DNA of 12,505 nucleotides from a virus (taxonomy: Duplodnaviria > Heunggongvirae > Uroviricota > Caudoviricetes), in the IMG/VR virus record IMGVR_UViG_2671180747_000010, positions 1 through 12,505 of that record, one strand, 5' to 3'. Under the pieces are notes generated by a model. It saw nothing but the letters and a program-made list of their open reading frames with translations, did no database searches and was not told where the DNA came from. This document shows positions 1-12,505 of the stretch, piece by piece. The translations under genes and the position numbers were made by a program. Position 1 is the stretch's first letter, and every line of letters starts with the position of its first letter.

Positions 1-6
1 TCGGGG

Positions 7-31
7 AAAAAAAACCCCGCCAGTGGCGGGG
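7..31 (-). terminator. Intrinsic terminator, tR'-like (minus strand)
   Basis: Perfect 7-bp GC-rich stem CCCCGCC(15-21)/GGCGGGG(25-31) with 3-nt loop; on the minus strand it is followed by an 8-nt T run (plus-strand A8 at 7-14). Confidence 0.55.
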
Positions 32-50
32 ATCTTTTGATAAAAACGAC

Positions 51-74
51 AAAGGCACCATTAAGGTGCCTTTT
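51..74. terminator. Hairpin with flanking T-runs on both strands (possible bidirectional terminator)
   Basis: Stem GGCACC(54-59)/GGTGCC(65-70), 5-nt loop, extended by AAA/TTT pairs; followed by TTTT on the plus strand and TTTGTCGTTTTT on the minus strand. Confidence 0.35.
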
Positions 75-204
75 ACACAGGGCAGCAGGCTTGTCATCAC
101 CTTATTGCTACTCCTGGCTTCCAGTTCGGAAGTCTCACAAGTCCCATCAGGGTACAGCGACAGTATCAGTCAACACTCTATGATTCTGCTGAACAGGCAG
201 TTTC

Positions 205-340
205 GCACTGTACATTATAACCTGTTAAGCCAACAAAAAACCCGCTCGGCGGCGGGGTTTGCTTACTTTGCCATCGCGAACAAAATCTGCAAAATATCAG
301 ATTTACACGGAATATATGCTCTTCAGTTCTATTTTGCAAG
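205..340 (-). promoter_or_regulatory. Candidate late promoter (pR'-like) region downstream of the Q-like gene
   Basis: Two minus-strand candidates: (a) -35 TTGCAA (334-339), 17-bp spacer, -10 TATATT (311-316), overlapping the Q stop; (b) a perfect -10 TATAAT (214-219) with a poor -35, placing a start ~195 nt upstream of the terminators at 7-74. Sequence-only call. Confidence 0.3.
235..257 (-). terminator. Intrinsic terminator-like hairpin after the Q-like gene (minus strand)
   Basis: Stem CCCGC(241-245)/GCGGG(252-256) with 6-nt loop; on the minus strand followed by TTTTTT (plus-strand A6 at 235-240). Confidence 0.4.
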
Positions 341-1012
341 ATATGGTTCTAAATTAATCGACTTTTGCCGTGAACGTACCCGCATTACTGAAATAAGAGC
401 ATCCCTGTCCAGCATCTCTGCACTACCCCGCATAGCCAACCAGTGAGGCCTGTGTGTTTTTGTCCATGTAGATTTAGCAACTCCTATGAACACCGCTAAC
501 TCCTGATGTTCATAGGTCTCACGCCCTGCCAGCTCACTCTTCACATCCTGTGCCGCCAGCCAAATCAGTTTCTTCAGACGATCCAGCGTTTTCCCTGCAA
601 TTTTTCTGGTACCAGCCTGAGCTTTAAACTCACCCCATACCCATTGTGTTATAGTGACCTGATCTTCCCAGCAAACATTTCCACTGTAGCACCACAGTAA
701 CCACGCCTTCTGATGTTCTTCCAGTTCCAGAACGGCACGCCGCCACGATGATGTTGCAAACTCAACCGGACTGACCAGCGCAATTGATGAGCCTTTCGCC
801 AGTGATTGTTTACCCGGGATCGGTTGATTATCCCGCGTGATCATTTTTCCGGTTACCTCATCGCGATAACGAATTTTTTTGCGTCTGTAACGCCCTGTAT
901 CGAACAGGGCATTCTCCTGCCAGGCTTCCAGCTGGCCTTTTGTCGCCCCACTGAGATCCGCAGTGGCAATCATGAGTTGCTCACGAACAAACTGTAAATA
1001 CTGGTTATTCAT
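329..1012 (-). CDS. Phage antitermination protein Q-like (227 aa from ATG at 1012; a GTG at 1018 is also in frame)
   Basis: Position immediately downstream of rusA, with the ATG overlapping the rusA stop (ATGA), and immediately upstream of promoter-like sequence plus terminators. Size is typical of the longer Q families. Assignment is mainly contextual. Confidence 0.5.
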   Translation of the reverse strand: MNNQYLQFVREQLMIATADLSGATKGQLEAWQENALFDTGRYRRKKIRYRDEVTGKMITRDNQPIPGKQSLAKGSSIALVSPVEFATSSWRRAVLELEEHQKAWLLWCYSGNVCWEDQVTITQWVWGEFKAQAGTRKIAGKTLDRLKKLIWLAAQDVKSELAGRETYEHQELAVFIGVAKSTWTKTHRPHWLAMRGSAEMLDRDALISVMRVRSRQKSINLEPYLAK

Positions 1013-1368
1013 GCGCACTCCAGTTCTGTGATTTTTATCCCCAGCCGCCCGCCAGGAACAGGCAGGCCACGCACAATATTGATTTCATCAAACTGCTCAT
1101 CGTCCATTAACAACCCCGCATGCGTAAGCGCATCCAGCGGCGCTTTCAGAATATTGTCCAGGTCACGGCGGCGCTTATCCGGTGGCTCTGCAATAATCCT
1201 GATTACCAGCCTTCCGGACAGGCTTAATTTCAGCCGCTGCTGGTTAACAATAAGCGCCACAGCACGGCGATAGCGCTTTCCCTCCTCCGAGATAAAATAT
1301 GTGCTGCCACGACGACGCCAGTAGGTGTTCACCGTTGGCGGGTAAGGTAAAACCAAATCTATGAGCAT
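1009..1368 (-). CDS. rusA: Crossover junction endodeoxyribonuclease RusA (Holliday junction resolvase), 119 aa
   Basis: Translation MLIDLVLPYPPTVNTYWRRRG...PPDKRRRDLDNILKAPLDALTHAGLL...GGRLGIKITEL aligns along its length with E. coli RusA as I recall it (LPWPPSNNRYY...PDRRRRDLDNLQKA...GGRLELTITE). Strong SD AAGAGGTG upstream. Confidence 0.9.
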   Translation of the reverse strand: MLIDLVLPYPPTVNTYWRRRGSTYFISEEGKRYRRAVALIVNQQRLKLSLSGRLVIRIIAEPPDKRRRDLDNILKAPLDALTHAGLLMDDEQFDEINIVRGLPVPGGRLGIKITELECA

Positions 1369-1380
1369 CAGTCACCTCTT

Positions 1381-2430
1381 TTACCCGAGCACGCCAGTCG
1401 CAAAGGCGTGATCAAGAAAATGAAAAATTAACTCAACCTGGGACCCGTACTTTTTCTCAAACTCCAGCGGGTCAGCATGAAGTTCGTTGTGGTGCTCCCG
1501 GCACAACGGTAGTGTGAAAATATCGTGGGATTTTGTCCCCATACCGCCCTGCCCATGGCCAATCAAGTGATGCGGATCATCAGCTGGCTTTCCACAGCAT
1601 GCACACGGCTGCGTCTTAACCCAGCGCGTGAACTTTTCATTAACCCAGCGACGACGTTTAGGCCGTTTCATGAAAGATTCCGGGGACTCCGGATCAACGG
1701 CGATGCTTACTACCGTCTTTTCCTGTGGCGTGGTTTGTGGCTGGTGGGCGTGAAGCGGTGGCGCTATGTTTTTTGTCCGCTGCTTCAGGATGCTGGTGGC
1801 GGTCTGCTCTCCCGGTATGATGTCGCTCTCACTGTATACGGAGCGAATTTTTTCCACCGGTAATCCCAGCGAACGACGCAATACAGATTCCGGAAGCGCA
1901 TCAGCCACCTGATTGCAGACCGCCCACCAGGATAATTCAGCCAGCGATAATTCACGCTCCTGTGCGCCATTCATTACGTGACGGATGACGTCAATCATCC
2001 AGGCGGCCAGATTCTGTTGAGCAAGTAGCTCCAGTGAATCAGATGTCTGCTCCCGCAGGTGGTTGTCGCAGTGCCAGCACAACACCATCGCGCCGGTACT
2101 GTAACGGTGAATGACGGTTTCGCTGTGATGATAATCGCCGTGTGGCCACTGGCAGGATTTCACGTGACGTAATAACCAGTCAGACAGTACACCAGCGCCA
2201 CCCGCAGCACGGATCACCCGCTCATCGCTGAAAAATGGCAGTAATGATTTATCTTCCGCCAGCGGCTGGCGAACGGCAGGTACAAACCCGGACGGCAGAG
2301 CACGCATGCTTTTCGGTTCCGGCTCCACCAGCACCCTGCCGCAATGAAAAACAGGCAGTGATTCGCGTCCGGGCTTAAGGACCACCAGGCCAAGTTCCGG
2401 CACCAGAACAGGTCGAAGTAATACCCGCAC
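1381..2430 (-). CDS. Phage protein, DUF968/YdfU-like, with C-terminal Cys/His-rich HNH-like motif (349 aa)
   Basis: C-terminus QPCACCGKPADDPHHLIGHGQGGMGTKSHDIFTLPLCREHHNELH is a CxCC...HH...C..HH zinc-finger/HNH-like signature. Size and position upstream of rusA resemble YdfU-type nin-region proteins. GTG start preceded by GGAGG. Confidence 0.7.
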   Translation of the reverse strand: MRVLLRPVLVPELGLVVLKPGRESLPVFHCGRVLVEPEPKSMRALPSGFVPAVRQPLAEDKSLLPFFSDERVIRAAGGAGVLSDWLLRHVKSCQWPHGDYHHSETVIHRYSTGAMVLCWHCDNHLREQTSDSLELLAQQNLAAWMIDVIRHVMNGAQERELSLAELSWWAVCNQVADALPESVLRRSLGLPVEKIRSVYSESDIIPGEQTATSILKQRTKNIAPPLHAHQPQTTPQEKTVVSIAVDPESPESFMKRPKRRRWVNEKFTRWVKTQPCACCGKPADDPHHLIGHGQGGMGTKSHDIFTLPLCREHHNELHADPLEFEKKYGSQVELIFHFLDHAFATGVLG

Positions 2431-2431
2431 G

Positions 2432-2704
2432 TTACCTCCAGATACGTTGCTGGAATGTGCGGGACGGACGCGGTGGACGTTCGGAATAAGGGAGCCTGAC
2501 AGAGATTATCCAGTGACGATAATTGAGGCTGAGGGCTTTCTTAACCTCGTATCCGCGCCTGCGGTAACACTGAATCAGCCATTCGGCCTGTTCTTCAGTG
2601 CATGGAGGATGCTGGTACCAGTGGGTTTTAAATACGTGCGAATGCCGCCCCCGCTTAATGGCCGGGACGGCTTCAGAATTGTGGGATTTTATATGTTGCG
2701 CCAT
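2432..2704 (-). CDS. Hypothetical phage nin-region protein (90 aa from ATG at 2704; longer GTG start at 2722 possible)
   Basis: ORF ends 1 nt before the DUF968 gene start (operon-like). The ATG at 2704 has a GGAG SD 6 nt upstream. No family recognised. Confidence 0.45.
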   Translation of the reverse strand: MAQHIKSHNSEAVPAIKRGRHSHVFKTHWYQHPPCTEEQAEWLIQCYRRRGYEVKKALSLNYRHWIISVRLPYSERPPRPSRTFQQRIWR

Positions 2705-2722
2705 CGGGTTCTCCGGTGACAC

Positions 2723-2876
2723 AGCAGGTGCCAGTTGTTCAGGCTGGCTGGATGATTTTAACCAGAATGCGATAAAAAGTGTATAAGACCATCACATATT
2801 GCATTCATGCAAAATGATTGTTACATAATATTACTTAATAAGTATAGGTTTTACCGTTTTATCATTAGAAGATTGT
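2723..2876 (+). promoter_or_regulatory. AT-rich divergent intergenic region, probable promoter of the PAPS-reductase/ParB-like operon
   Basis: ~150 bp strongly AT-rich between divergently oriented genes. Contains TTGCAT (2799-2804) then a 17-bp spacer and TACATAATA. The exact promoter is not resolvable by eye. Confidence 0.3.
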
Positions 2877-4103
2877 ATGTCAGGAACCATAACAAAAATC
2901 AGCACAGGGGAAAATGTTCTGTCAGCAGCAATCCATCGCATTGAATGGTTGTTCGAAACGTTTAATGAGGTCTGCTTGTCTTTTTCTGGTGGCAAAGACT
3001 CTACTGTGCTTTTCCATCTTGTGGCAGAAGTCGCCAGTAGAAAAAAACGTCGTTTTTCGGTTTTATTCATTGACTGGGAAGCCCAATATCAGTGCACGAT
3101 TAATCATATCCAAAAGATGAGGGAAATGTACCGGCATGTGACAGACAATTTTTACTGGGTAGCGCTTCCTCTGACTACGGTAAATGGCGTCTCTCAGTTT
3201 CAGCCAGAATGGATATGTTGGGAGCCAGGTGTAGAATGGGTTCGTCAGCCACCAGATGACGCTATTACAGATATGTCGTATTTCCCATTTTATCGGTATG
3301 CCATGACGTTTGAAGAATTTGTTCCGGCATTTTCTTCCTGGTTTGCCGGTAACCGATGTGGAGTGGGAATACTAACTGGTGTTCGTGCTGATGAATCGCT
3401 CAATCGCTTTATGGGACTGGTGTCTCAGCGCAAACTGAGATATGCAGATGATAAACCCTGGACCACCGCTTCACCCGATGGTTTTTACTACACCATGTAT
3501 CCATTGTATGACTGGAAAACAAATGATATATGGACGTATAACTCAAGAACCCGCGCCATCTACAATCCCCTGTACGACCTAATGTACCGTGCCGGAGTGT
3601 CGTTACGCAACATGCGTGTTTGTGAGCCCTTTGGCCCGGAACAGCGTAAGGGGCTGTGGCTTTACCATGTTCTGGAGCCGGAAACCTGGGCCAGGATGTG
3701 TGAGCGAGTGTCAGGGGCTGCCAGTGGCGCTCTTTATGCCAATGAAAGCGGTGCCTATTTTGCTCTGCGTAAACGAATCACAAAACCGGCTCATCATACC
3801 TGGCGCAGCTACGCAATGTTCATGCTGGATGTTATGCCAGAAAGAACAGCAGAACATTACCGTAACAAAATTGCAGTCTACCTGCGCTGGTATCAGACGC
3901 GGGGCTTCCCGGATGATATCCCGGATGAACAGGAGAATGACCTGGGGAGCCGGGATATCCCGTCCTGGCGACGTATCTGTAAGACGCTCATAAAGAATGA
4001 CTTCTGGTGCCGGACCCTCTCCTTCAGTCCGAACAAACCCCGGCACTATGAGCGTTATCTGCAACGAATGAAGGAAAGGAGGAAAGAATGGGGGATTCTG
4101 TGA
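2877..4103 (+). CDS. PAPS-reductase-family PP-loop protein (IbrA/YbdN-like; DndC/SspD superfamily), 408 aa
   Basis: N-terminal SFSGGKDS PP-loop ATP-pyrophosphatase motif; length ~406 aa matches YbdN/IbrA. Followed by an overlapping ParB-like gene, as in ybdNM/ibrAB. Confidence 0.85.
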   Translation: MSGTITKISTGENVLSAAIHRIEWLFETFNEVCLSFSGGKDSTVLFHLVAEVASRKKRRFSVLFIDWEAQYQCTINHIQKMREMYRHVTDNFYWVALPLTTVNGVSQFQPEWICWEPGVEWVRQPPDDAITDMSYFPFYRYAMTFEEFVPAFSSWFAGNRCGVGILTGVRADESLNRFMGLVSQRKLRYADDKPWTTASPDGFYYTMYPLYDWKTNDIWTYNSRTRAIYNPLYDLMYRAGVSLRNMRVCEPFGPEQRKGLWLYHVLEPETWARMCERVSGAASGALYANESGAYFALRKRITKPAHHTWRSYAMFMLDVMPERTAEHYRNKIAVYLRWYQTRGFPDDIPDEQENDLGSRDIPSWRRICKTLIKNDFWCRTLSFSPNKPRHYERYLQRMKERRKEWGIL

Positions 4104-4732
4104 CGCCTGAGATGGATGTACTAAGCAACATGATTCGTCAGTACTTCAGTCGGGAACAGCCCGAAGAAGAGTCCATACGAGCCCTTAACCATCTGCGCAG
4201 GGTACTGCATGAAGTCAGTCCTTTTGCACAGGAGCCTGTAGACTGTGTGCTGTGGGTGAAAGCGGATGAGGTGGTAGCCAACGATTATAACCCCAATGTC
4301 ATGGCACCAAGTGAGAAGAAACTGCTGAAGCAGTCACTGGAAAAAGATGGTTTCACACAACCGGTGGTGGTGTCAGAGGAGAAGAATCATTATCTGGTGG
4401 TGGATGGTTTTCATCGTCAGTTATTGGGCAGAGAATCAGTTACAGGAAAACGTCTGAGGGGCTGGCTGCCTGTAGCCTGTATTAATCCAGAGAGAAAAGG
4501 GCAAGCCGCACGCATTGCCGCAACCATTCGACATAACCGGGCTAGGGGGAAACACCAGATAGACTCAGTGTCTGATATTGTAAGAGATCTTTCACGCTTG
4601 GGATGGGCAGATGAACGCATTGGCACTGAGTTGGGTATGGATCAGGATGAAGTACTGAGACTTAAACAAATTAGCGGGCTAACTGAGTTATTTCAGGAAG
4701 TGGATTTCAGCCCGGCATGGACAGTTAAATAG
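4088..4732 (+). CDS. ParB/sulfiredoxin-fold (DGxHR-like) protein, IbrB/YbdM-like, 214 aa
   Basis: VVDGFHRQ motif and an arginine-rich segment (ARIAATIRHNRARG) typical of ParB N-terminal-domain/DndB-like proteins. Start overlaps the upstream gene by 16 nt with an AGGAGG SD (translational coupling). Confidence 0.8.
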   Translation: MGDSVTPEMDVLSNMIRQYFSREQPEEESIRALNHLRRVLHEVSPFAQEPVDCVLWVKADEVVANDYNPNVMAPSEKKLLKQSLEKDGFTQPVVVSEEKNHYLVVDGFHRQLLGRESVTGKRLRGWLPVACINPERKGQAARIAATIRHNRARGKHQIDSVSDIVRDLSRLGWADERIGTELGMDQDEVLRLKQISGLTELFQEVDFSPAWTVK

Positions 4733-4785
4733 CAAGCTCGACTTACTCCCGGCAAGGCAACAAAATGATAACTAATACAACTCAA

Positions 4786-4808
4786 GGGCGATTAATATCG
4801 CCCCTTTT
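4786..4808. terminator. Hairpin between convergent genes (possible bidirectional terminator)
   Basis: GGGCGAT(4786-4792) TAAT ATCGCCC(4797-4803) followed by CTTTT on the plus strand. The T tract is weak. Confidence 0.35.
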
Positions 4809-4897
4809 ACTGCTCAATTTTCGACCGATACATCTACTTGACTCTCGTTTTACTCCCCCTTTTTACCCGATATGGAAATTCCCATATCGTAATGAAT

Positions 4898-5002
4898 TCA
4901 GCTCCCCAGACGATCCATCAAAAGCACGACCAGGCAGTAAACACCCACAACAACAATAACGGCCAGAGCGCCTTCCATTGCCAGTGAGATATCATCCGAC
5001 AT
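4898..5002 (-). CDS. Small hydrophobic peptide (34 aa), predicted single transmembrane helix
   Basis: ATG preceded by AAGGAGG SD. Translation MSDDISLAMEGALAVIVVVGVYCLVVLLMDRLGS. Not in the supplied ORF track (below its size cut-off). Confidence 0.45.
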   Translation of the reverse strand: MSDDISLAMEGALAVIVVVGVYCLVVLLMDRLGS

Positions 5003-5037
5003 ATTCCCTCCTTTGGTGTGAATCCCGGCGAACGTTT

Positions 5038-5121
5038 TTACCCCCACCGACAAATAACATATATTAAAAAAGCGATAACCATAGCAACGCCTGTAATTGC
5101 AAATGCTTCAGGCCAGTTCAT
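5038..5121 (-). CDS. Small hydrophobic peptide (27 aa), predicted single transmembrane helix
   Basis: ATG overlaps the stop of the upstream DUF551 gene (ATGA) and is preceded by AGGAGGTG SD. Translation MNWPEAFAITGVAMVIAFLIYVICRWG. Confidence 0.45.
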   Translation of the reverse strand: MNWPEAFAITGVAMVIAFLIYVICRWG

Positions 5122-5630
5122 TGGCGCACCTCCTGCGGCGGTTCTGGTAGCGGCATCCAGCCGGTTACATTGCGGCTCTGTGTTTCGAAAAATTCATCAC
5201 CATTACGGACTACATCAAAAAACTCACCGTCTCGATATTGCGCATAAAGAACGAATGCGCCATCACATAAAATAATTACGTGCTGACCATCATCCGGCAT
5301 TCGCTCACTACAGCTTATCCAACCATCCGGAGTTACCGGATAGTTGGTTGACGTTTCCGAGATTTCCCGAAAATTATTGGTTGACGACCCCTTATTTTCC
5401 CGAAAGTTTCCAGCCTGAAGCATGGCGGCGCGGTGACACCAGATAATCCAGCCAAGCGCCATATCCCATGCCATGTATTCTCTATCGCCATTTTTTGCTC
5501 TGCGGCGATCTACAGATTCTCCGAAACGCTTCTCCATAAATAATTCATAGGCTGCTCGTTCATCCGATACTGCTGCCAGTGATGCCAGCGCAATCCGTGC
5601 CAGCTCTTCCGCTTCTTCTGCTGGAAGCAC
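5118..5630 (-). CDS. DUF551-type phage protein (170 aa from GTG); likely N-terminally disrupted (see finding)
   Basis: C-terminal DGWISCSERMPDDGQ...GWMPLPEPP resembles the DUF551 signature (W-x-S-x-x-D-x-LP ... GWMPLP). An in-frame upstream ATG at 5705 with SD is cut off by TGA at 5682-5684. Confidence 0.6.
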   Translation of the reverse strand: MLPAEEAEELARIALASLAAVSDERAAYELFMEKRFGESVDRRRAKNGDREYMAWDMALGWIIWCHRAAMLQAGNFRENKGSSTNNFREISETSTNYPVTPDGWISCSERMPDDGQHVIILCDGAFVLYAQYRDGEFFDVVRNGDEFFETQSRNVTGWMPLPEPPQEVRQ

Positions 5631-5977
5631 AACGTTGCTACCCGGTCCGTATGTTTCGCGCCAATGCTGGATTGTCAGCAGTCAATCTTTGGTAATAGTG
5701 GTCATGCCGCGTTTCCTTCTTTCTTATTGTAACCAGGTGAATCATTTGATACCAACGAGGGTTTTAGTGAAAGGAGGTGAAATCACCTGTAAGATACTGA
5801 AATAAAACAGGTGATGTCTGGATGAGCGCTTAAAGTCTATTTGATATCGATTGTGCAATAATTAATCGTTTATTCTAAAATCGGCAAAACTTTTGATACT
5901 GCGATCTCAACTTTTTAAAGCGTTTAAAACTTCATTAAATCTATATGGCAACTAACATACGGGCCAGCCTCGCCAAA

Positions 5978-6508
5978 CTAACCCGCTTTAGATTCTACCG
6001 GATTTGATTGCCTACTTGTCTCGGTTTTTTCCAAAATCTCTCTGACGCAATCGTCTGGCATATCTACAATCATCAACGCAGCCAGGCGCTTCCTGCCTTC
6101 TAGTTGTAATAAATCTTGGTTTTCTTTATTCAGCAGTGTCAGAACCGTCTCTACACCTTTGCGAGCAAGGAGATTGGTTAACTGTTCTCGTTCGTCTTTC
6201 GTAAGGAATGAAAGCATCTGTGTAAGCTGATCTCCCTTATCACCAGAACAACCAAAATTACCATAAATACCAATATCGTTTGGTAATTCACCCTTGCCCT
6301 CTTTAAGCCACTCAAGACTAACGCCTTCACTTTCAGAAATTCGTATAAGGATACTTTCTCTGGGGGCTGGTTGTGTTTGTCCTCCCTTGAAATAGCTGTT
6401 TAATGTGTTGATATTGATTCCCCACGCTCTGGCAGCTGCACTTCTTGAAGGGTAGCGCTTTGTAAGCATTCCAATACGTTCAATAACAGGTTCTTTTCCC
6501 TGCGACAT
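5978..6508 (-). CDS. Mu-like prophage repressor (c-like), HTH DNA-binding protein, 176 aa from ATG at 6508
   Basis: Leftward gene divergent from ner/A/B, as for Mu c. ATG at 6508 has an AAGAGG SD; the track's longer 6583 start lacks one. Putative HTH segment RSAAARAWGININTLNSYFKG; C-terminal part loosely resembles Mu c. Confidence 0.7.
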   Translation of the reverse strand: MSQGKEPVIERIGMLTKRYPSRSAAARAWGININTLNSYFKGGQTQPAPRESILIRISESEGVSLEWLKEGKGELPNDIGIYGNFGCSGDKGDQLTQMLSFLTKDEREQLTNLLARKGVETVLTLLNKENQDLLQLEGRKRLAALMIVDMPDDCVREILEKTETSRQSNPVESKAG

Positions 6509-6590
6509 AAAGATACCTCTTGGTGCTTTTCTAAGGAAAGGTTTCTTTCTATTTATCCAATTGAAAAATAAGGATAAAAGCAAAAATTAG

Positions 6591-6639
6591 CCAAAATACC
6601 AAAAATACCTTGATTTGGTATTTTTGGTGATGCATTATT
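6591..6639. promoter_or_regulatory. Operator-like palindrome overlapping a candidate early promoter (Pe-like) for ner-A-B
   Basis: Perfect 12-bp inverted repeat ACCAAAAATACC (6598-6609) / GGTATTTTTGGT (6617-6628) with a tandem CCAAAATACC copy at 6591-6600. Overlaps -35 TTGATT (6610-6615), 18-bp spacer, TG-extended -10 ATTATT (6634-6639). Confidence 0.45.
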
Positions 6640-6650
6640 TACCCGTACAG

Positions 6651-6670
6651 ATATCCGCACGAATATCCGC
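6651..6670. promoter_or_regulatory. Direct repeat ATATCCGC x2 at 12-bp spacing upstream of ner (possible Ner/IHF-type site)
   Basis: ATATCCGC at 6651-6658 and 6663-6670, between the candidate Pe and the ner SD. Confidence 0.25.
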
Positions 6671-6698
6671 GCGGGTAACTTTTTAGAATAGAGGAAGT

Positions 6699-6947
6699 AT
6701 GAGTAGAAGAGAAGTTTCAGATCACGATTGGCCGCCTGAAATCATCAAGGCGCGCTTACACATGGCTGGCTTATCACTGCGCTCTTTATCTTTAAAGGCT
6801 GGTTACAGCAGGGATTCGCTGAAAAGCGTATTACGTACTCCTTGCCGACCGTATCAGCAAATAATTGCTGATGCTCTTGGGGTATCACCTGAAGAAATCT
6901 GGCCCAGTCGATACCAGGTTAAGAGCTATATGAGAAAGGCGTCATGA
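6699..6947 (+). CDS. ner: Ner-like DNA-binding transcriptional regulator (Mu Ner / Nlp family), 82 aa
   Basis: DWPPEIIKARLHMAGLSLRSLS...IIADALGVSPEEIWPSRYQ matches Mu Ner / E. coli Nlp (DWHPADIIAGLRK...IWPSRY). SD GAGGAAG upstream; located between repressor and transposase. Confidence 0.88.
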   Translation: MSRREVSDHDWPPEIIKARLHMAGLSLRSLSLKAGYSRDSLKSVLRTPCRPYQQIIADALGVSPEEIWPSRYQVKSYMRKAS

Positions 6948-6948
6948 T

Positions 6949-9039
6949 ATGTATGTCATTGCAAAAGAACTGATTGGCGCGCCCGGAATGCCTGCTACAA
7001 CAAAAGGTATTCGCCAGGCATTACAACGTTACGTACAAGGGAAAAGCTGTTGTTCCCGTCGTCGCTCAGGCTCTAAAGCAACTGAATACAGCATCGACTG
7101 TTTACCTGAAGTGACGCAGCAGGCATTACGTGAACGCTACGCCCTGCAACTGATGACGCAAAAAGCCGATGAATCACCGGCTCCGGTGGTGACAAAGGCC
7201 AGACGCTCACCTGCCGTGGTTGATGCGGTGGAGGCATATCGCGGATCACCCCAACTGATGGTCGAACGCCTCAATGCCCTGACTGAAAACCAACGTAAAG
7301 TGGCAGAGGCACGAATAGCGATCGTCAGCGAGGTGCTGAAAATCGCGCAACAACCCGGCTTTAGTTGCGCTAAGGCTATCCGGTTCCTCGTTAACAGCCT
7401 GGCACGATCACAACTGGACGAGCGCATTGTGGCAATGGTTGAGACGGCGAACGCCAAAAAGGGAAACAGCCGCGCGTTGAGTGAAATCACGCTGAAACGC
7501 TGGATTGCGGCCTTTAACAAGGCACAGAACGCCGCTGAACGCCTGCTTTTACTGGCACCGGGTAAACGCCAGGAAATAAAAGCCGAAGATATTAACTGGC
7601 TGCCCGAATTTCTGGCGCAGTATCGCCAGTCAAACGGCCGACCAATGACCGAGGCTTACGAGGATTTTGTTGCTGAATGGCAGCACCGGCACGCTGATGA
7701 GCCTTATATGCTCGATATCATGCCCTCTTATGACACCATTCGCCGCGCAATGAAGAAACTGCCGGAAGTGGTGAAACAAAAAGGCCGGGTAACTGGCAGT
7801 GAATACCGTCAGCTTGAGGGATTCACGCGCCGCGACTGGTCCAGAATGCCGGTGAATTATGTCTGGATTGGTGACGGTCACGGCATGAAGCTGAAATGCG
7901 CGCACCCGGTTCACGGGCGGCCATTCGCACCGGAAGTGACCTTTGTTATCGACGGTGGCACGCGCTTTGTGGTGGGCTGGAGCCTTGACCTGGCTGAAAA
8001 TGTTTTCGCCGTAGCCGGTGCCATACAGCACGGTATTCGCCATCATGGCAAACCGTTTCTGTATTACTCGGATAATGGCTCCGGGGAAACCGCCGACGTC
8101 CTGGATAAGGAGATTGTGGGGATACTGCCACGACTGGGGATTAATCACCCGACAGGGATTGCCGGTAATCCGCAGGGACGGGGCATTATCGAACGGCTTA
8201 ACCGCACATTACCGATGCGCATAGCCCGTAAATACCGCACCTATTTCGGGAAAGGAGCAGATCGCGAGACGTTACGTAAAACCAACCGCGATTTACGCTC
8301 GGCATTCAGTGCCCTGCAACAGGGCAAACGGCTGAACGCCCGGCAGCAGTCAGCGATGCGTGATTTACCGTCCTGGTCTGAACTGATTGATGCCATTCGT
8401 GACGGTGTTGAGTGGTACAACAACCGGCCGCACGATGAATTACCCATGAAGCCGAACGGTAAACATTACAGCCCGGCGGAGTTCAGAAAAAAACGCCTGG
8501 CGGAAGAGGACACGGAAATTGAATGGCTGTCCGATGTGGAATTGCGGGACATGTTCCGGCCGATGGTGGAACGCCCTGTAAGACGCTGTGAAATACGCTG
8601 GCTGAATAATATTTACTACGCGCCCGAGCTGCGTGATGAACATGGCCGCAAAGTGCTTATCAGCTATGACATTCATGATGCCGAACGAATTACCGTGCGT
8701 CGCCTGGATGGCAGCGTGATTTGCGAGGCGGTATGGGACGGCAATAAACGCGAAGCCTTCCCGGTCAGCGCGGAATACTACAAACAGCAGCAGCGTCTTA
8801 AAGGCATGCGTAAACGCGCAGAGGAAAAAATTCGTGATGCCGAGGATGAGGTTATCAACGTGCTGGAGCACAAGCCGCAGGAGCCATGGCTGGAAAACAT
8901 ATACCGCCCTATGGGTAATACGGTGGCCGTTCAGCAGCCAGCGATTGATGATGAACCTGACGAAGAATACGAGCGTAATTTCCAGCGGGGATTACAGCTG
9001 CTTGAAGCGAAATTAAAAGAAAATGACCCGCTGGCCTGA
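6949..9039 (+). CDS. Mu-type DDE transposase (MuA-like), 696 aa
   Basis: Starts 2 nt after the ner stop. Candidate DDE-region motifs VWIGDGHG and YYSDNGSG. C-terminus YRPMGNTVAVQQP...DEEYERNFQRGLQLLE resembles the MuA C-terminus (FRPSGNTERV...DDEYETERDEYLNHSLDILE, from memory). Confidence 0.92.
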   Translation: MYVIAKELIGAPGMPATTKGIRQALQRYVQGKSCCSRRRSGSKATEYSIDCLPEVTQQALRERYALQLMTQKADESPAPVVTKARRSPAVVDAVEAYRGSPQLMVERLNALTENQRKVAEARIAIVSEVLKIAQQPGFSCAKAIRFLVNSLARSQLDERIVAMVETANAKKGNSRALSEITLKRWIAAFNKAQNAAERLLLLAPGKRQEIKAEDINWLPEFLAQYRQSNGRPMTEAYEDFVAEWQHRHADEPYMLDIMPSYDTIRRAMKKLPEVVKQKGRVTGSEYRQLEGFTRRDWSRMPVNYVWIGDGHGMKLKCAHPVHGRPFAPEVTFVIDGGTRFVVGWSLDLAENVFAVAGAIQHGIRHHGKPFLYYSDNGSGETADVLDKEIVGILPRLGINHPTGIAGNPQGRGIIERLNRTLPMRIARKYRTYFGKGADRETLRKTNRDLRSAFSALQQGKRLNARQQSAMRDLPSWSELIDAIRDGVEWYNNRPHDELPMKPNGKHYSPAEFRKKRLAEEDTEIEWLSDVELRDMFRPMVERPVRRCEIRWLNNIYYAPELRDEHGRKVLISYDIHDAERITVRRLDGSVICEAVWDGNKREAFPVSAEYYKQQQRLKGMRKRAEEKIRDAEDEVINVLEHKPQEPWLENIYRPMGNTVAVQQPAIDDEPDEEYERNFQRGLQLLEAKLKENDPLA

Positions 9040-9120
9040 AATAAAAAAATAACCCGAGGGGTAACTCAGGTTATTTGGGTTTCAGTCTCGGAGAATGCTG
9101 TCTCAAGCGAGGTAAATAAT

Positions 9121-10053
9121 ATGACTGATATTAACGATGTAATCAAGACCATAGATGAACTTATTGATGGCGGCGTACTGACGCAGTATGCCATCGCCAG
9201 GGAGGCGGGAATTTCCGACGGCACATTATCGGCTTTCCGCAAAGGGAAATATAAAGGAGACAATGATGCTATAACGGCGGCCATGCTTTCCTGGTATGAA
9301 AACTGGAATAAACAAAGCGCACTGTCCGAGCTGCCACAGTTTGTGGAAACGCAGACAGTCCAGGAGCTGCGCGCACTGTTTCAGGCGGTTCGCCTGATGG
9401 GCTGTATTAACGTCATAGTGGGCGTGCCGGGTGTGGGTAAAACGGCCACCGCCCGTAATTACTGCCAGGAGCAACCGAACACCTGGATGATCACCCTGTC
9501 ACCCGCGCACTCCAGCGTCACGGAGTGTCTGCTGGAGCTGGCAGAGGAACTGGGGATTGATTACACCCGCGCGAACAAAGGGGCATTATCCCGCGCCATC
9601 CGCCGTCGCCTGATGGGAAAGCGCGGACTGGTGATTGTTGATGAGGCTGATCATCTTGGTATTGACGGTCTGGAGCAACTCCGGGCAATCCAGGACGCCA
9701 CAGGGGTCGGGATGGTGCTTATTGGTAACCCAAAGGGGCTGTTTAAAGGCGGACGCCGCGCCGTTGATGATTTATCTCGCCTGTTCAGCCGTCTTGCCCG
9801 TACAAAACAACTACGCAAGGCCAAAAAAGCGGATGTGCTGGCTATTGCCAGGGCATGGGGGATTAGTGGTGAGGCCGAGCTGGCTGTCATGCAGGCTATC
9901 GCTGAAAAACCGGGGGCATTACGCGTTCTGACGCATACGCTTAACCAGGCGTGGATCACCGCCAGCGGTGAAGGTGCGGCACTGACAGAAAAACATATTA
10001 ATGCGGCCTTTAAAGAGGTTTATGCCAACCCTGAATTACTCTCACAGGTGTGA
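9121..10053 (+). CDS. Mu B-like transposition ATPase / target DNA activator, 310 aa
   Basis: Walker A GVPGVGKT. Extensive similarity to Mu B as recalled (GTLSAFRKGKYKGDN vs GTISSFINDKYNGDN; LPQFVETQTV; GLVIVDEADHLG; KKADVLAIA; KPGALRVL). SD GAGGT upstream. Confidence 0.92.
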   Translation: MTDINDVIKTIDELIDGGVLTQYAIAREAGISDGTLSAFRKGKYKGDNDAITAAMLSWYENWNKQSALSELPQFVETQTVQELRALFQAVRLMGCINVIVGVPGVGKTATARNYCQEQPNTWMITLSPAHSSVTECLLELAEELGIDYTRANKGALSRAIRRRLMGKRGLVIVDEADHLGIDGLEQLRAIQDATGVGMVLIGNPKGLFKGGRRAVDDLSRLFSRLARTKQLRKAKKADVLAIARAWGISGEAELAVMQAIAEKPGALRVLTHTLNQAWITASGEGAALTEKHINAAFKEVYANPELLSQV

Positions 10054-10055
10054 TT

Positions 10056-10277
10056 ATGATTGCATTTAATATTCCTGATATTTACGGACGCTTTCACCTG
10101 GTGAATTTCGATAACGTCAAAGCAGTCTCCGTGTCTGACAGTGAAGAATGTGGCGATTTACTTTTTGAATTTAATGATCGCACCAGAATGGCAATATCGG
10201 CAGGACTTGATCGTGAAGGTGCGAAAGAAGCTTACAGCAATATTTGTCGTTTTATCGGTGCAAAACGAATCAGCTAA
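10056..10277 (+). CDS. Small protein in the Mu kil position (73 aa from ATG at 10056)
   Basis: Immediately follows the B stop (GTG at 10050 overlaps it; ATG at 10056 has an AGGTG SD). Size and position match Mu kil, but no sequence-level recognition. Confidence 0.5.
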   Translation: MIAFNIPDIYGRFHLVNFDNVKAVSVSDSEECGDLLFEFNDRTRMAISAGLDREGAKEAYSNICRFIGAKRIS

Positions 10278-10289
10278 ACGAGGTGTTAT

Positions 10290-10922
10290 ATGAATACGCA
10301 GATACAGCAGGAAATCAATGTTCTCCACAGCTTTCGAGAGTTTAACGACAATGGCTGTGAGGTTCGTGATTATATCTATGAATTGATGATCGGTGATGGT
10401 GTGTGTTTTCTGTATATAGACCTGTATCAGTGGTATGCAGACATGCAACTTGATTCCATCAGACGCCGTTTTAATCATGAATGCTTTGATGTGGATGTAT
10501 GGGAAAGCCTGCGCTTTGGTTTTCTGATTATGGATGATTATCGCCAGGGGTGGCGACACGGTTACTCCATTCTTCGTGCAATCATGCGTGGCGAAACCCG
10601 AAAAATTCCGGGGATGGGTAAAGTTAATCGAGGCTTCCTGTCAGAGCTGGCTGCATTGCGCATGAATCCATTACTGATACAACCGGAGTTCCCTATGAAT
10701 TTGTTTGATTCACTGAATAACGCCCGCCGCCTGACTGAACTTGCTGGTGCGGTACTGGAGCGCAGCAAACGCTACCCGCAACGTTTTGCACTGAAAACCA
10801 CGCCGCCGGTAAACGAAGTTAAGGGAACCGGTGAAATTGAAATCACCGTTAAGACCAACGGCCTGCGCCGCCGTGTGAAGGCCACCCGTATAAGCGGATG
10901 CACGGTTTACTGGGAAGTATGA
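10290..10922 (+). CDS. Hypothetical protein of the Mu-like early (semi-essential) region, 210 aa
   Basis: Long ORF co-oriented with the early operon with a GAGGTG SD. No recognisable motifs. Confidence 0.55.
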   Translation: MNTQIQQEINVLHSFREFNDNGCEVRDYIYELMIGDGVCFLYIDLYQWYADMQLDSIRRRFNHECFDVDVWESLRFGFLIMDDYRQGWRHGYSILRAIMRGETRKIPGMGKVNRGFLSELAALRMNPLLIQPEFPMNLFDSLNNARRLTELAGAVLERSKRYPQRFALKTTPPVNEVKGTGEIEITVKTNGLRRRVKATRISGCTVYWEV

Positions 10923-10996
10923 AGTTGCTTCATGGTTCGGCTCTGTCATCAGGTCAGACGCCGGGTCAGTTATCCGAACAAAACGAGGACCAGAGG

Positions 10997-11194
10997 ATGA
11001 GTAAAGTCGTACGCATTATTTTCGAATACAAGGAGCACGTTATCCATAAAAACGCGGATGGAACAGTGCGCATGGGGGTAAGTCTGGACATACGTTCAAC
11101 CGGGATAAAGCAGAAAGGTGATGGACCTGCCATGATTTTTGGGGGGGGGTTATGCTCGCGGAAAGCAGAGACTTTGCTGAACTTGTGGCAATGA
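10997..11194 (+). CDS. Hypothetical early-region protein, probably truncated by a frameshift at the G9 tract (intact reading would be 10997..11271, ~104 aa)
   Basis: ATG at 10997 with SD AGGACCAGAGG. A 9-G homopolymer at 11141-11149 separates it from an open frame that runs to a stop at 11269-11271, 5 nt before gam. Confidence 0.4.
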   Translation: MSKVVRIIFEYKEHVIHKNADGTVRMGVSLDIRSTGIKQKGDGPAMIFGGGLCSRKAETLLNLWQ

Positions 11195-11275
11195 AAGCCA
11201 GTGCGCTCATGAAAGATATGGACATGAGTTCCGGGGTTATTAAAGGTAATGAATTTAATCAGCAGGGGTAATTCC

Positions 11276-11827
11276 ATGAGCAAAGTACGNNNNNNNNNNN
11301 NNNNACGCGTTACAAAATTAAAGGCCGCAGCCGAGGCGGCACCGCAGACCCGTGAAGAGGTCAGCCGCGATATCCGACGCTTTGGGGATATGCAGCGTGA
11401 GGCACTACGCCTGGAAACGGCGATGAATGACGAAGTGGCAGAAATCACCGCCCGTTATACGCCGCAGATTGAAAACCTTAAAAAAGAAATCAAAGTGCTT
11501 TTTAAGGGGATTCATGACTGGTGTAAAACCAACCGCAATGAGCTGACGAACGGCGGTGAAACCAAAACTGCCAATCTGACCACCGGAACGGTGTCATGGC
11601 GGCTGGGAAATCCATCATGCAGCGTCAGTCGTGATGTGGAAGGTGTGATTGAAATGCTGCGTCGTATGGGGCTTGAGCGCTTCATCCGCACGAAAGAGGA
11701 AGTGAATAAGCAAGCTGTCCTGGCAGAGCCGGATGCGGTGAAAGGGATTGCGGGTATTAAGGTGAATAAAGGCGCTGAAAATTTTCATGTCGAGCCTTTT
11801 GAACAGGACGCCGGACTGAATAAATAA
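11276..11827 (+). CDS. gam: Host-nuclease inhibitor Gam (Mu Gam family), ~183 aa, containing a 15-N gap
   Basis: DIRRFGDMQREALRLETAMNDEVAEIT...NELTNGGETKTANLTTGTVSWR...LERFIRTKEEVNK...EPFEQDAG matches Mu Gam as recalled (DIKRIGDLQREASRLETEMNDAIAEIT...DELTNGGKVKTANLVTGDVSWR...LQRFIRTKQEINK...IPFEQEAG). Confidence 0.88.
   Translation: MSKVXXXXXXRVTKLKAAAEAAPQTREEVSRDIRRFGDMQREALRLETAMNDEVAEITARYTPQIENLKKEIKVLFKGIHDWCKTNRNELTNGGETKTANLTTGTVSWRLGNPSCSVSRDVEGVIEMLRRMGLERFIRTKEEVNKQAVLAEPDAVKGIAGIKVNKGAENFHVEPFEQDAGLNK
11290..11304. other. Run of 15 ambiguous bases (N) - assembly/scaffold gap or masked bases inside gam
   Basis: Directly visible in the sequence; true length of the missing segment is unknown. 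Confidence 1.
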
Positions 11828-11911
11828 CACCGCATTAAATCTTTAAATATCACATCGTTTTAATTATGGCGCTCGCGTCAGGGGACTGCTCGCGCCTGAA
11901 TGAGGCATGTC

Positions 11912-12490
11912 ATGAGTATTAAATATCGTTATTTTAAAATGAATGAGAGCGATTCCCGTCATTATCACAGGGAATGGCTTGATTGTGTTGGCAGGGAGCG
12001 CCAGAAATTGATTGATGATTTTCTCAGTAATCAGAATGCCAGAGGGTATTGTTATTCCTGGTATTGTGGGGATTTTTTTGTCAAATCAATACTGGTGCAT
12101 GAGGATGTTGATGTCGGAAGAAATAAACGGGTGTTGTCTGATAAATTTGATGAAGATGGCCGTACTTTATTTTCAGTTAAGCCCGACCGCAGATTCAGAG
12201 AGGGAAAAAAACTGAACAAAGCACTGAATATCTTAAACGAGAAGTTAAAACAGCTTCCGTCATTCAGTACCTGGATGGTTAATAAACTGGACTGCTATTT
12301 TGAGGTTTTTGGTGTCAGCAACGGCCGCACAGTTATGGCGTGCTCTTCTGCCGGGTTCTATGGCGACAAAGGGGCTGTTGTGGTTCGTATTCCTGTCGGT
12401 GAATCAGATAATGCCTTTTCACCTGAAAAGCTGCATCCGTCATTGATGGCAATCAAGCATTCCGAATTCATCGCAATAACGGAGGAATAA
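11912..12490 (+). CDS. Hypothetical protein, AT-rich accessory gene downstream of gam (192 aa from ATG at 11912)
   Basis: ATG at 11912 with GAGG SD 6 nt upstream (the track's start at 11900 lacks one). No recognisable motifs; the gene looks AT-rich by eye relative to the neighbouring A/B/gam genes. Confidence 0.55.
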   Translation: MSIKYRYFKMNESDSRHYHREWLDCVGRERQKLIDDFLSNQNARGYCYSWYCGDFFVKSILVHEDVDVGRNKRVLSDKFDEDGRTLFSVKPDRRFREGKKLNKALNILNEKLKQLPSFSTWMVNKLDCYFEVFGVSNGRTVMACSSAGFYGDKGAVVVRIPVGESDNAFSPEKLHPSLMAIKHSEFIAITEE

Positions 12491-12493
12491 TTC

Positions 12494-12505
12494 ATGATTG
12501 ATGCA
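12494..12505 (+). CDS. 5' end of a further early-region gene (partial, runs off the window)
   Basis: ATG at 12494 preceded by GGAGG SD (12481-12485). Only 4 codons visible. Confidence 0.3.

Follow-up and report, generated by a model that had tools for sequence, protein, structure and literature searches.

The present study addresses two very short open reading frames (ORFs), ORF1 of 27 and ORF2 of 34 codons, which are located next to each other on the minus strand of a Caudoviricetes DNA (IMG/VR record IMGVR_UViG_2671180747_000010, positions 1 to 12,505; this whole stretch of 12,505 nucleotides is referred to as the window). Taken together, our results suggest that ORF1 and ORF2 are two separate genes, each encoding a single-pass inner-membrane micro-protein, and that the two products probably serve as non-lethal accessory factors. 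Judged from its sequence, ORF1 is a genuine protein-coding gene for a single-helix membrane micro-protein; it is a newly recognised, uncalled gene that belongs to a known category, the small membrane proteins of phages, and we found neither an annotation nor a published description of its family. ORF2 is a genuine gene as well; it had previously been annotated as a hypothetical protein and covered by ribosome profiling. Both ORFs had been noticed before in an inspection of the window alone, here referred to as the original prediction. The coordinates and both peptide sequences, the strong Shine-Dalgarno (SD) sequence in front of each ORF, the ATGA overlap of the ORF1 start codon with the stop codon of the upstream DUF551 gene and the presence of one hydrophobic helix per peptide were all confirmed (Table 1), the best 17-residue Kyte-Doolittle windows reaching 2.64 for ORF1 (residues 7-23) and 3.15 for ORF2. 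The assumption that both ORFs are unannotated holds for ORF1, which is uncalled, but not for ORF2, which has been called by PGAP (WP_072149359.1) and is present in the Sakai annotation as ECs_5710.

Coding potential of ORF1

The N-terminus of ORF1, MNWPEAFA, fits the motif M-x-W-P-(E/D)-A-F-A from the first residue onwards, and the peptide ends in CRWG. A degenerate DNA pattern for this motif was run on IMG/VR and, as a negative control rather than as a taxonomic survey, on 596 Gb of bacterial genomes, in which roughly 140 matches were estimated to occur by chance. The IMG/VR matches fall into at least 73 distinct contexts and comprise about 41 unique peptides of 22-34 amino acids (aa), all of which consist of the motif and a hydrophobic helix. 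Among the matches listed, 43 of 51 unique motif-bearing viral sequences encode an ORF of 20-36 codons with strongly hydrophobic residues 9-23; the corresponding number in the genome-wide control was 3 of the 118 matches listed, the remainder being mostly chance matches inside long genes. The codons that are used for the motif differ by lineage (CCT/CCC/CCA/CCG, GAA/GAG/GAT/GAC, GCA/GCT/GCC/GCG and TTT/TTC), and the high-GC members use other codons.

A similar picture emerges from the substitutions downstream of the motif. For 26 unique 27-codon sequences of the enterobacterial subfamily ending in '...ICRW.', the ratio of the proportions of non-synonymous and synonymous changes (pN/pS) was 0.39 with the motif codons excluded, at a pS of 0.54 and with no indels, while the other two sense frames of the same sequences gave 0.73 and 1.48. 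The stop codon is located exactly at codon 28 in 27 of 30 unique segments, which had been collected with no reading-frame filter. An independent capture by the C-terminus only (Y-x-I-C-R-W-G-stop) yielded 73 unique regions, nearly all of which are 27-codon ORFs that start with M-x-W-P-E/D-A-F/L/I. Occasional variants among them are W3R, P4S/T/L and A8T/I/V, and a few copies are decayed.

Distribution and common features of the ORF1 family

By tblastn, ORF1 was identified in 92 GenBank phage records, including those of 933W, VT2-Sakai, BP-4795, Min27 and the virulent Vequintavirinae phage Av-05. Divergent homologues that are not accompanied by ORF2 occur in the P1-like phage SJ46 (MSWPEAFAIVGVAMAIAAIFIFWG) and in Stx2a_WGPS2 (MTWPDAFAIVGVAMSIALIVFAICRWG), where the gene follows an ead/Ea22-DUF551 gene and adjoins xis and int. 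Further members of the family reside in genome contigs of Rhizobium sp. NFR07 (L219) and Sphingobium jiangsuense, which are probably prophages. The genes located upstream of the family members are mutually unrelated and comprise DUF551 genes, DUF669 genes, L0139 of 933W, a gene for an 86-aa protein in P1-like phage, and others; in Rhizobium sp. NFR07 the upstream gene is a Pfam-confirmed DUF669 gene, and related members on viral contigs follow similar genes. Among 45 unique family members, the junction to the upstream gene is ATGA in 36 and of the TAATG type in seven cases, so that the genes overlap or abut in 43 of 45. Judged from the junction sequences, this is the arrangement expected for termination-reinitiation coupling. 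A lysine or arginine residue was present in none of 39 members within the first 20 residues and in 35 of 39 within the last eight, and one acidic motif residue is found in all of them; for such a distribution of charges, the positive-inside rule predicts that the N-terminus of the family members faces out and the C-terminus in. ORF1 displays all features by which the family was defined, i.e. the N-terminal octapeptide, a length of 22-34 aa with a helix after the motif and a short K/R tail, and the stop/start junction with the upstream gene.

We also considered that ORF1 might be the end of a DUF551-ORF1 frameshift fusion. This was rejected, as ORF1 is equipped with an SD and an ATG of its own, the upstream genes bear no relation to each other, and seven members have a stop codon before the ATG.

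In none of the records inspected, i.e. the PGAP record of the window, the related E. coli loci and Sakai, is ORF1 annotated, and intact homologues are likewise uncalled in the records of 933W, Av-05, Stx2a_WGPS2 and SJ46. A literature search with the string WPEAFA returned no relevant paper. ORF1 is also absent from the supplementary data of the ribosome-profiling papers on Sakai and EDL933 and of an Enterobacteriaceae micro-proteome preprint, and a review on small phage proteins mentions no membrane examples.

Several side observations were made on individual family members. In phage POCJ13 (L007 1515-1598), the ORF1 homologue carries a TAG codon in place of W3, and the RefSeq record has two ORFs called on the opposite strand over this region, gp73 and gp72 (L007 1519-1647 and 1604-1786, minus), which are probably shadow ORFs of the hydrophobic coding sequence. 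On the Rhizobium contig L219 and the IMG/VR contigs L192, L207, L116 and L120, the ORF1-family gene is joined by TAATG or TGATG to a conserved gene for a protein of about 190 aa that resembles single-stranded DNA-binding (SSB) protein and ends in ...R(K/R)PWG(I/S/N)K. The SSB-like protein of L207 has no Pfam match, and L192 carries a dnaN-like gene downstream. In 933W (L333 1201-1446), the ORF1 homologue ends about 95 nucleotides (nt) before the annotated sokW RNA and mokW/hokW, and in several Shiga-toxin (Stx) phages ORF1 marks the insertion point of the hok/sok moron.

Conservation and translation of ORF2

Of 5426 complete E. coli genomes, 723 carry the region comprising ORF1 and ORF2, the median copy number being two, and the region is also present on at least 151 IMG/VR contigs. 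ORF2 is annotated in all related E. coli loci that were inspected as well as in Sakai. Compared with the at least 151 IMG/VR loci and with RefSeq proteins, its identity amounts to 88-100% at the aa level, which lies above the threshold of at least 80% over 34 residues used here for the ECs_5710/WP_001278453 type of prophage protein, and ORF2 has its own SD and ATG. Also its position is that of the gene in relatives, as it follows the last ead/DUF551-type gene of the nin region and precedes a hok locus or DUF968-rusA-Q; in the window, the place of hok is taken by an inverted ibrAB-like gene pair, as in STEC299.

The 143 captured copies of ORF2 represent 18 distinct coding sequences. Counting each variant allele once, we obtained 15 synonymous and 15 non-synonymous changes in the ORF2 frame, distributed over codon positions 1/2/3 as 10/5/15; with an expected synonymous share of 0.27, this corresponds to a binomial p of 0.005. 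The amino-acid replacements are without exception conservative (I/V/L/A/S, D/E, N/S and F/L), the start codon varies from ATG to GTG only, and the stop codon from TGA to TAA only. The other frames gave synonymous to non-synonymous counts of 6:22 and 5:24 (sense) and of 7:23, 11:18 and 4:24 (antisense), and all five contain internal stops. This pattern of substitutions indicates that ORF2 is under purifying selection in the annotated frame only. The original prediction had named a loss of the two frames in related prophages as evidence that would refute it; when this was checked, both frames were found to be kept.

ORF2 is restricted to lambdoid prophages of the E. coli type. When 1.8 billion representative proteins were searched with a profile, a single distant relative of 30 aa was returned (P0031, MLAALKGFVAILAVVAIYCLVVVLMDRLSD). 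It is encoded in a different lambdoid prophage at the position corresponding to that of ORF2, where its gene is flanked by the last ead-type genes and by hok and starts at a GTG preceded by GGAG. Compared with ORF2, the C-terminal half of P0031 has mainly synonymous changes, and the N-terminal half is different yet hydrophobic. None of the K-12 prophages Qin, Rac and DLP12 contains a homologue of ORF1 or ORF2, and thus none offers a named K-12 small protein for comparison, the e14 and CP4 elements lying outside this check.

The Sakai copy of ORF2 has been reported as the novel translated gene XECs145 of prophage Sp6 (Hucker et al. 2017, PLoS One, PMC5597208). In lysogeny broth (LB), XECs145 showed an RNA value of 79 reads per kilobase per million mapped reads (RPKM), a ribosome-footprint RPKM of 346, a ribosomal coverage value (RCV) of 4.35 and a coverage of 0.99 (PMC5597208, Table S2). 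The RNA RPKM, footprint RPKM and RCV were 121, 150 and 1.14 in brain heart infusion (BHI) and 73, 1.1 and 0.01 under cold/osmotic stress; the classifier call was 'real', and an inner-membrane location was predicted (PMC5597208, supplementary file 10 for the location). ECs_5710/XECs145 is the same gene as ORF2, with 88% aa identity and the same place after a DUF551 gene and an ORF1 homologue. In contrast to the 54-aa ORF starting inside ORF1 that was modeled for XECs145 in that study, the form which is called by PGAP and conserved is the SD-preceded one of 34 aa. A further difference is that ECs_5710 is followed by a hok-type locus in Sakai and ORF2 by the inverted ibrAB-like pair in the window.

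The ORF2 cassette

ORF2 is flanked by two direct repeats of GGGTAAAAA, which measure 9 nt in the window and 11 nt in most relatives. The 175-nt unit between them consists of the spacer, ORF2 and a palindrome. In loci that have ORF1 but not ORF2, the first repeat is joined without interruption to what lies past the second copy, in O157 and 933W the region upstream of hok; judged from these junctions, such loci look like the result of a precise deletion or insertion between the repeats. The palindrome, CGATATGGGAATT(T/C)CCATATCG, is perfect in most relatives and has one mismatch in the window. The corresponding RNA hairpin (4868-4889) is stable but lacks a U-tract and thus does not qualify as a canonical terminator; the palindrome might bind a protein or stabilise the RNA. 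The possibility that the cassette is an element resembling a miniature inverted-repeat transposable element was rejected, since it has the 9-nt flanking repeats but no terminal inverted repeats.

Interpretation and alternatives

According to our working model, ORF1 would be translationally coupled to the DUF551 gene by means of the ATGA overlap and the SD within the DUF551 coding sequence, and ORF2 would constitute an independent cassette of 175 bp that provides an SD and an ATG of its own and has a palindrome at its trailing end. From their charge distribution, both peptides are predicted to insert N-out/C-in, like small YidC-inserted proteins, and they would most probably act as non-lethal accessory factors by binding to a host inner-membrane protein or complex. 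The octapeptide of ORF1, displayed at the periplasmic face, might act as a recognition element for a conserved host component with the variable helix as its anchor, while ORF2 might be an add-on that is specific to E. coli and produced by lysogens, perhaps as a moron or an exclusion factor. As a more tentative extension, it might be speculated that ORF1 represents an undescribed pan-proteobacterial family of about 25 aa, the octapeptide of which docks onto a conserved host membrane machine, and that termination-reinitiation keeps the protein at a fixed ratio with the product of the preceding early gene.

Several observations weigh against the model. One antisense frame of ORF1 yields almost the same pN/pS as the sense frame (0.52 vs 0.50), which is a codon-shadow effect; because this antisense frame mimics the sense frame, the strand assignment relies on other features, namely the SD with the ATG, the constant stop position, the hydrophobic composition and the direction in which the operon runs. 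The closest relatives of ORF1 show no frame preference (8 synonymous to 17 non-synonymous changes vs 7:18), a count that is uninformative as the copies are too similar. A few haplotypes have a broken ORF1, owing to stop codons in place of W3 or W26 or to deletions of 1 nt or 14 nt. With 27 aa, ORF1 falls under the 30-aa cut-off of the Sakai study and outside its translation data (PMC5597208), and the Sakai footprint reads may be shared among near-identical prophage copies. In the window copy, coupling to ORF1 may be weakened by an early in-frame stop in the DUF551 gene. Finally, neither peptide has a significant match in Pfam, NCBIfam, PHROGs or PADLOC; ORF1 gave sub-threshold matches of transmembrane composition (PTR2, 17 bits vs a cut-off of 27; phrog_38566, E=0.027) and ORF2 none.

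That there are two separate genes has to be weighed against a single 74-aa protein with two helices, the gene of which was split by a frameshift mutation or is joined by a -1 slip on the G5 run (TGG GGG TAA to G GGG GTA). ORF2 does lie in the -1 frame of ORF1, which is open across the 36-nt spacer (a 51-aa TTG ORF), and a P-site tRNA-Gly could, by the sequence, re-pair on GGGGG beside the stop. Moreover, a protein search with the ORF1 and ORF2 peptides concatenated revealed rare fused proteins of 70-74 aa in public assemblies (P0001-P0004), one of them due to an extra G in the G5 run, and an AlphaFold2 model of the fusion, which is silent on interaction, consists of two helices (predicted local distance difference test score, pLDDT, 71). 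However, ORF1 ends at the same W-G-stop where ORF2 is absent (SJ46, WGPS2, 933W and Av-05); the last glycine codon is often GGA, so that the G-run is not conserved, and no X XXY YYZ heptamer is present. In all haplotypes, ORF2 retains an SD and a start codon of its own (ATG, or GTG in one lineage), and both are intact even in L181, where the G-run is missing and the ORF1 tail and the spacer differ. The split form occurs in 36 of 36 haplotypes, and its 34-aa cluster P0010 is found on at least 997 contigs as opposed to one or two per fused form, the fusions being derived from different indels. Neither of the hallmarks of a programmed -1 frameshift, a conserved slippery site and a downstream frame that lacks initiation signals of its own, was found, and we consider a single protein very unlikely. 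It appears highly improbable that the ORFs are untranslated and owe their conservation to a non-coding role, such as that of recombination linkers at module boundaries or of elements in a 3' untranslated region. This would agree with the location at a mosaic junction, with a spacer that is at least as conserved as the ORFs in close relatives (5 of 35 columns variable vs about 25%), and with the near identity of the first 24 nt of ORF1 among enterobacterial members even under different upstream genes. It is difficult to reconcile with the use of different codons for the same motif in high-GC members, with a helix region that diverges to the above pS of 0.54 and still remains hydrophobic, indel-free and stop-free, and with the frame-specific synonymous excess and the published strand-specific ribosome footprints (PMC5597208) of ORF2.

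With regard to function, the original prediction had proposed membrane-active toxins, superinfection exclusion or regulation of membrane proteins. Its interpretation is supported insofar as both ORFs are real, conserved genes for single-helix membrane peptides; superinfection exclusion and the regulation of a membrane protein are possible roles, whereas that of a toxin is the least supported of the three. If one or both peptides acted as membrane-depolarising toxins in the manner of Hok, Ibs, Ldr or TisB and were normally restrained, their small size and single hydrophobic helix would fit, as would the position of the pair immediately upstream of hok/sok loci in relatives and the weak promoter-like sites (9/12 matches) on the opposite strand at 4978-5005 and 5037-5065. 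Yet, among the features that define a type I toxin, only the small hydrophobic membrane peptide was found, and not an antisense antitoxin or an own promoter with a long structured leader: Rfam has no match at E<=1 over 4000-6000, a terminator-bounded antisense unit is missing (there is no terminator before 5698), leaving an undescribed RNA as a possibility, and the minus strand has no promoter-like site over 5725-4898. The start of ORF1 overlaps the upstream stop inside an operon, ORF2 exposes a consensus SD 36 nt past ORF1 with no long structured leader, and PADLOC gives no match. Moreover, the ORF2 homologue reaches its RCV of 4.35 in healthy, exponentially growing Sakai cultures in LB, and homologues of ORF1 are carried by the virulent phage Av-05 and lie within replication modules in phages of Alphaproteobacteria. 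A toxin role is, therefore, unlikely. It also seems rather doubtful that ORF2, and possibly ORF1, are lysogen-expressed morons that protect the host from other phages by superinfection exclusion at the inner membrane instead of contributing to the lytic programme of the phage itself. The transcription and efficient translation of the ORF2 homologue in uninduced Sakai cultures would be in favor, together with the organisation of ORF2 as a discrete, repeat-bounded cassette with a trailing hairpin beside other morons (hok/sok in relatives, ibrAB here) and the predicted inner-membrane location (PMC5597208, supplementary file 10). On the other hand, no promoter was recognised directly upstream of ORF2, similarities in PADLOC, PHROGs and Pfam are lacking, and the expression in culture could stem from an induced sub-population or from read-through of a defective prophage; in addition, the presence of ORF1 in a virulent phage fits poorly with a role restricted to lysogens.

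ORF1 is the main useful result of this study, as a 27-codon gene that none of the inspected annotations had called, not even those of intensively studied Shiga-toxin phages. The combination of a short, invariant motif with a variable membrane anchor, found in phages of distant hosts, provides a handle for finding a conserved host target, and ORF1 illustrates that coding capacity under 30 codons is still missed by phage annotation. To ORF2, for which only the start and the cassette boundaries were refined here, the present work adds little. For the prophages of enterohaemorrhagic E. coli (EHEC), two membrane micro-proteins are added to the accessory gene sets of the nin region and of the exo-xis type.

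Comparison with known small membrane proteins

Type I toxins such as Hok/Gef, Ibs, Ldr, ShoB, TisB and DinQ are hydrophobic single-helix peptides of 19-50 aa, which are often encoded in prophages. ORF1 and ORF2 share the small size and the single hydrophobic helix, and hok loci adjoin the pair in relatives; however, type I toxins have an antisense RNA, a long folded leader and a dedicated promoter, there is no sequence similarity, and the Pfam model HOK_GEF gave no match. AcrZ, MgtS, MgrB, KdpF and CydX are chromosomally encoded, condition-regulated small inner-membrane proteins of E. coli that bind to membrane partners. They belong to the same size class and also have a single transmembrane helix, partner binding being part of the working model in the case of ORF1 and ORF2, but they are unrelated in sequence, and ORF1 and ORF2 are phage-borne. 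YidC substrates of the Pf3 coat protein type combine an acidic N-tail, one helix and a basic C-tail and are inserted N-out/C-in without a signal peptide. The charge pattern of the ORF1 family is the same, which suggests a likeness of topology only, as the Pf3 coat is a virion protein of a filamentous phage, unlike ORF1 and ORF2. The superinfection-exclusion proteins T4 Imm, P22 SieA and HK97 gp15 are located in the inner membrane and are produced from prophages or early in infection; they have about 80 aa or more and often at least two helices. Thus, they are also small inner-membrane proteins of phages, but are larger than ORF1 and ORF2 and unrelated in sequence, and no match to PADLOC or PHROGs was obtained.

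Genetic context of ORF1 and ORF2

The chromosomes of E. coli S19-651 and several other human isolates contain a lambdoid prophage segment that is 100% identical to the window. On the minus strand, cII/YdaS-YdaT-type regulators are followed by replication genes, small early genes, ead/Ea22, the DUF551 gene, ORF1, ORF2 and two hairpins; past an inverted ibrA/ibrB-like pair, the minus-strand order resumes with DUF968, rusA and Q. According to this gene order, ORF1 and ORF2 are therefore located in the nin region at the distal end of the rightward early operon.

Table 1. Positions of ORF1, ORF2 and adjacent features in the window.
Feature	Position	Strand	Remarks
ORF1	5038..5121 (5121->5038)	minus	27 codons + TAA; MNWPEAFAITGVAMVIAFLIYVICRWG
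ORF1 Shine-Dalgarno AGGAGGTG	5127..5134	minus	inside the last DUF551 codons (Q-E-V); same sequence before ORF1 homologues that follow DUF551 genes
ATGA start/stop overlap	5118..5121	minus	ORF1 ATG 5121-5119, DUF551 TGA 5120-5118
ORF2	4898..5002 (5002->4898)	minus	34 codons + TGA; MSDDISLAMEGALAVIVVVGVYCLVVLLMDRLGS; PGAP hypothetical protein WP_072149359.1
ORF2 Shine-Dalgarno AAGGAGG	5007..5013	minus	invariant in 36 haplotypes save A->G at one position; kept in L181 despite a different spacer
9-nt direct repeat GGGTAAAAA, left copy	5035..5043	minus	includes the ORF1 stop codon
9-nt direct repeat GGGTAAAAA, right copy	4860..4868	minus	175 nt from the left copy; just past the palindrome
22-bp palindrome CGATATGGGAATTTCCATATCG	4868..4889	both	right after ORF2; stable RNA hairpin, no U-tract
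Upstream DUF551 gene	5118..5630	minus	Pfam PF04448, E=2.7e-20, 73.4 bits vs cut-off 22; PGAP start at 5681
PAPS-reductase-like gene (408 aa) and IbrB/ParB-like gene (214 aa)	2877-4732	plus	convergent to the nin operon
G+C-rich hairpin, bidirectional-terminator-like	4784..4805	both	between the ORF2 transcription unit and the convergent ibrB-like gene

The DUF551 gene of the window has an in-frame stop codon at 5682-5684 (minus) after its seventh codon (MTTITKD followed by the stop, compared to MITITKERLL... in phage POCJ13), by which the ancestral N-terminus is cut off, and at the start assigned by PGAP the open-reading-frame listing has no ATG, GTG or TTG. Several neighbouring genes are frameshifted or contain internal stops according to PGAP, and the prophage is decaying. 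At least three other pseudogenes were noted by PGAP in its early region, namely one hypothetical gene with a frameshift and two genes interrupted by internal stops (a DUF1627 gene and an ATP-binding replication gene); both ORF1 and ORF2 are intact.

The PAPS-reductase-like/IbrB-like pair is situated where O157-type relatives have hokD and a rem-like gene, and STEC299 carries the same insertion. Its PADLOC matches, to BrxP and DndC-type models, are weak. The sequence that follows the second repeat on the minus strand (4806-4860, GTAAAACGAGAGTCAAGTAGA...) initially agrees with the beginning of the region upstream of hok in relatives, before the similarity is lost; it is a remnant from the replacement of hok by the ibrAB-like segment.

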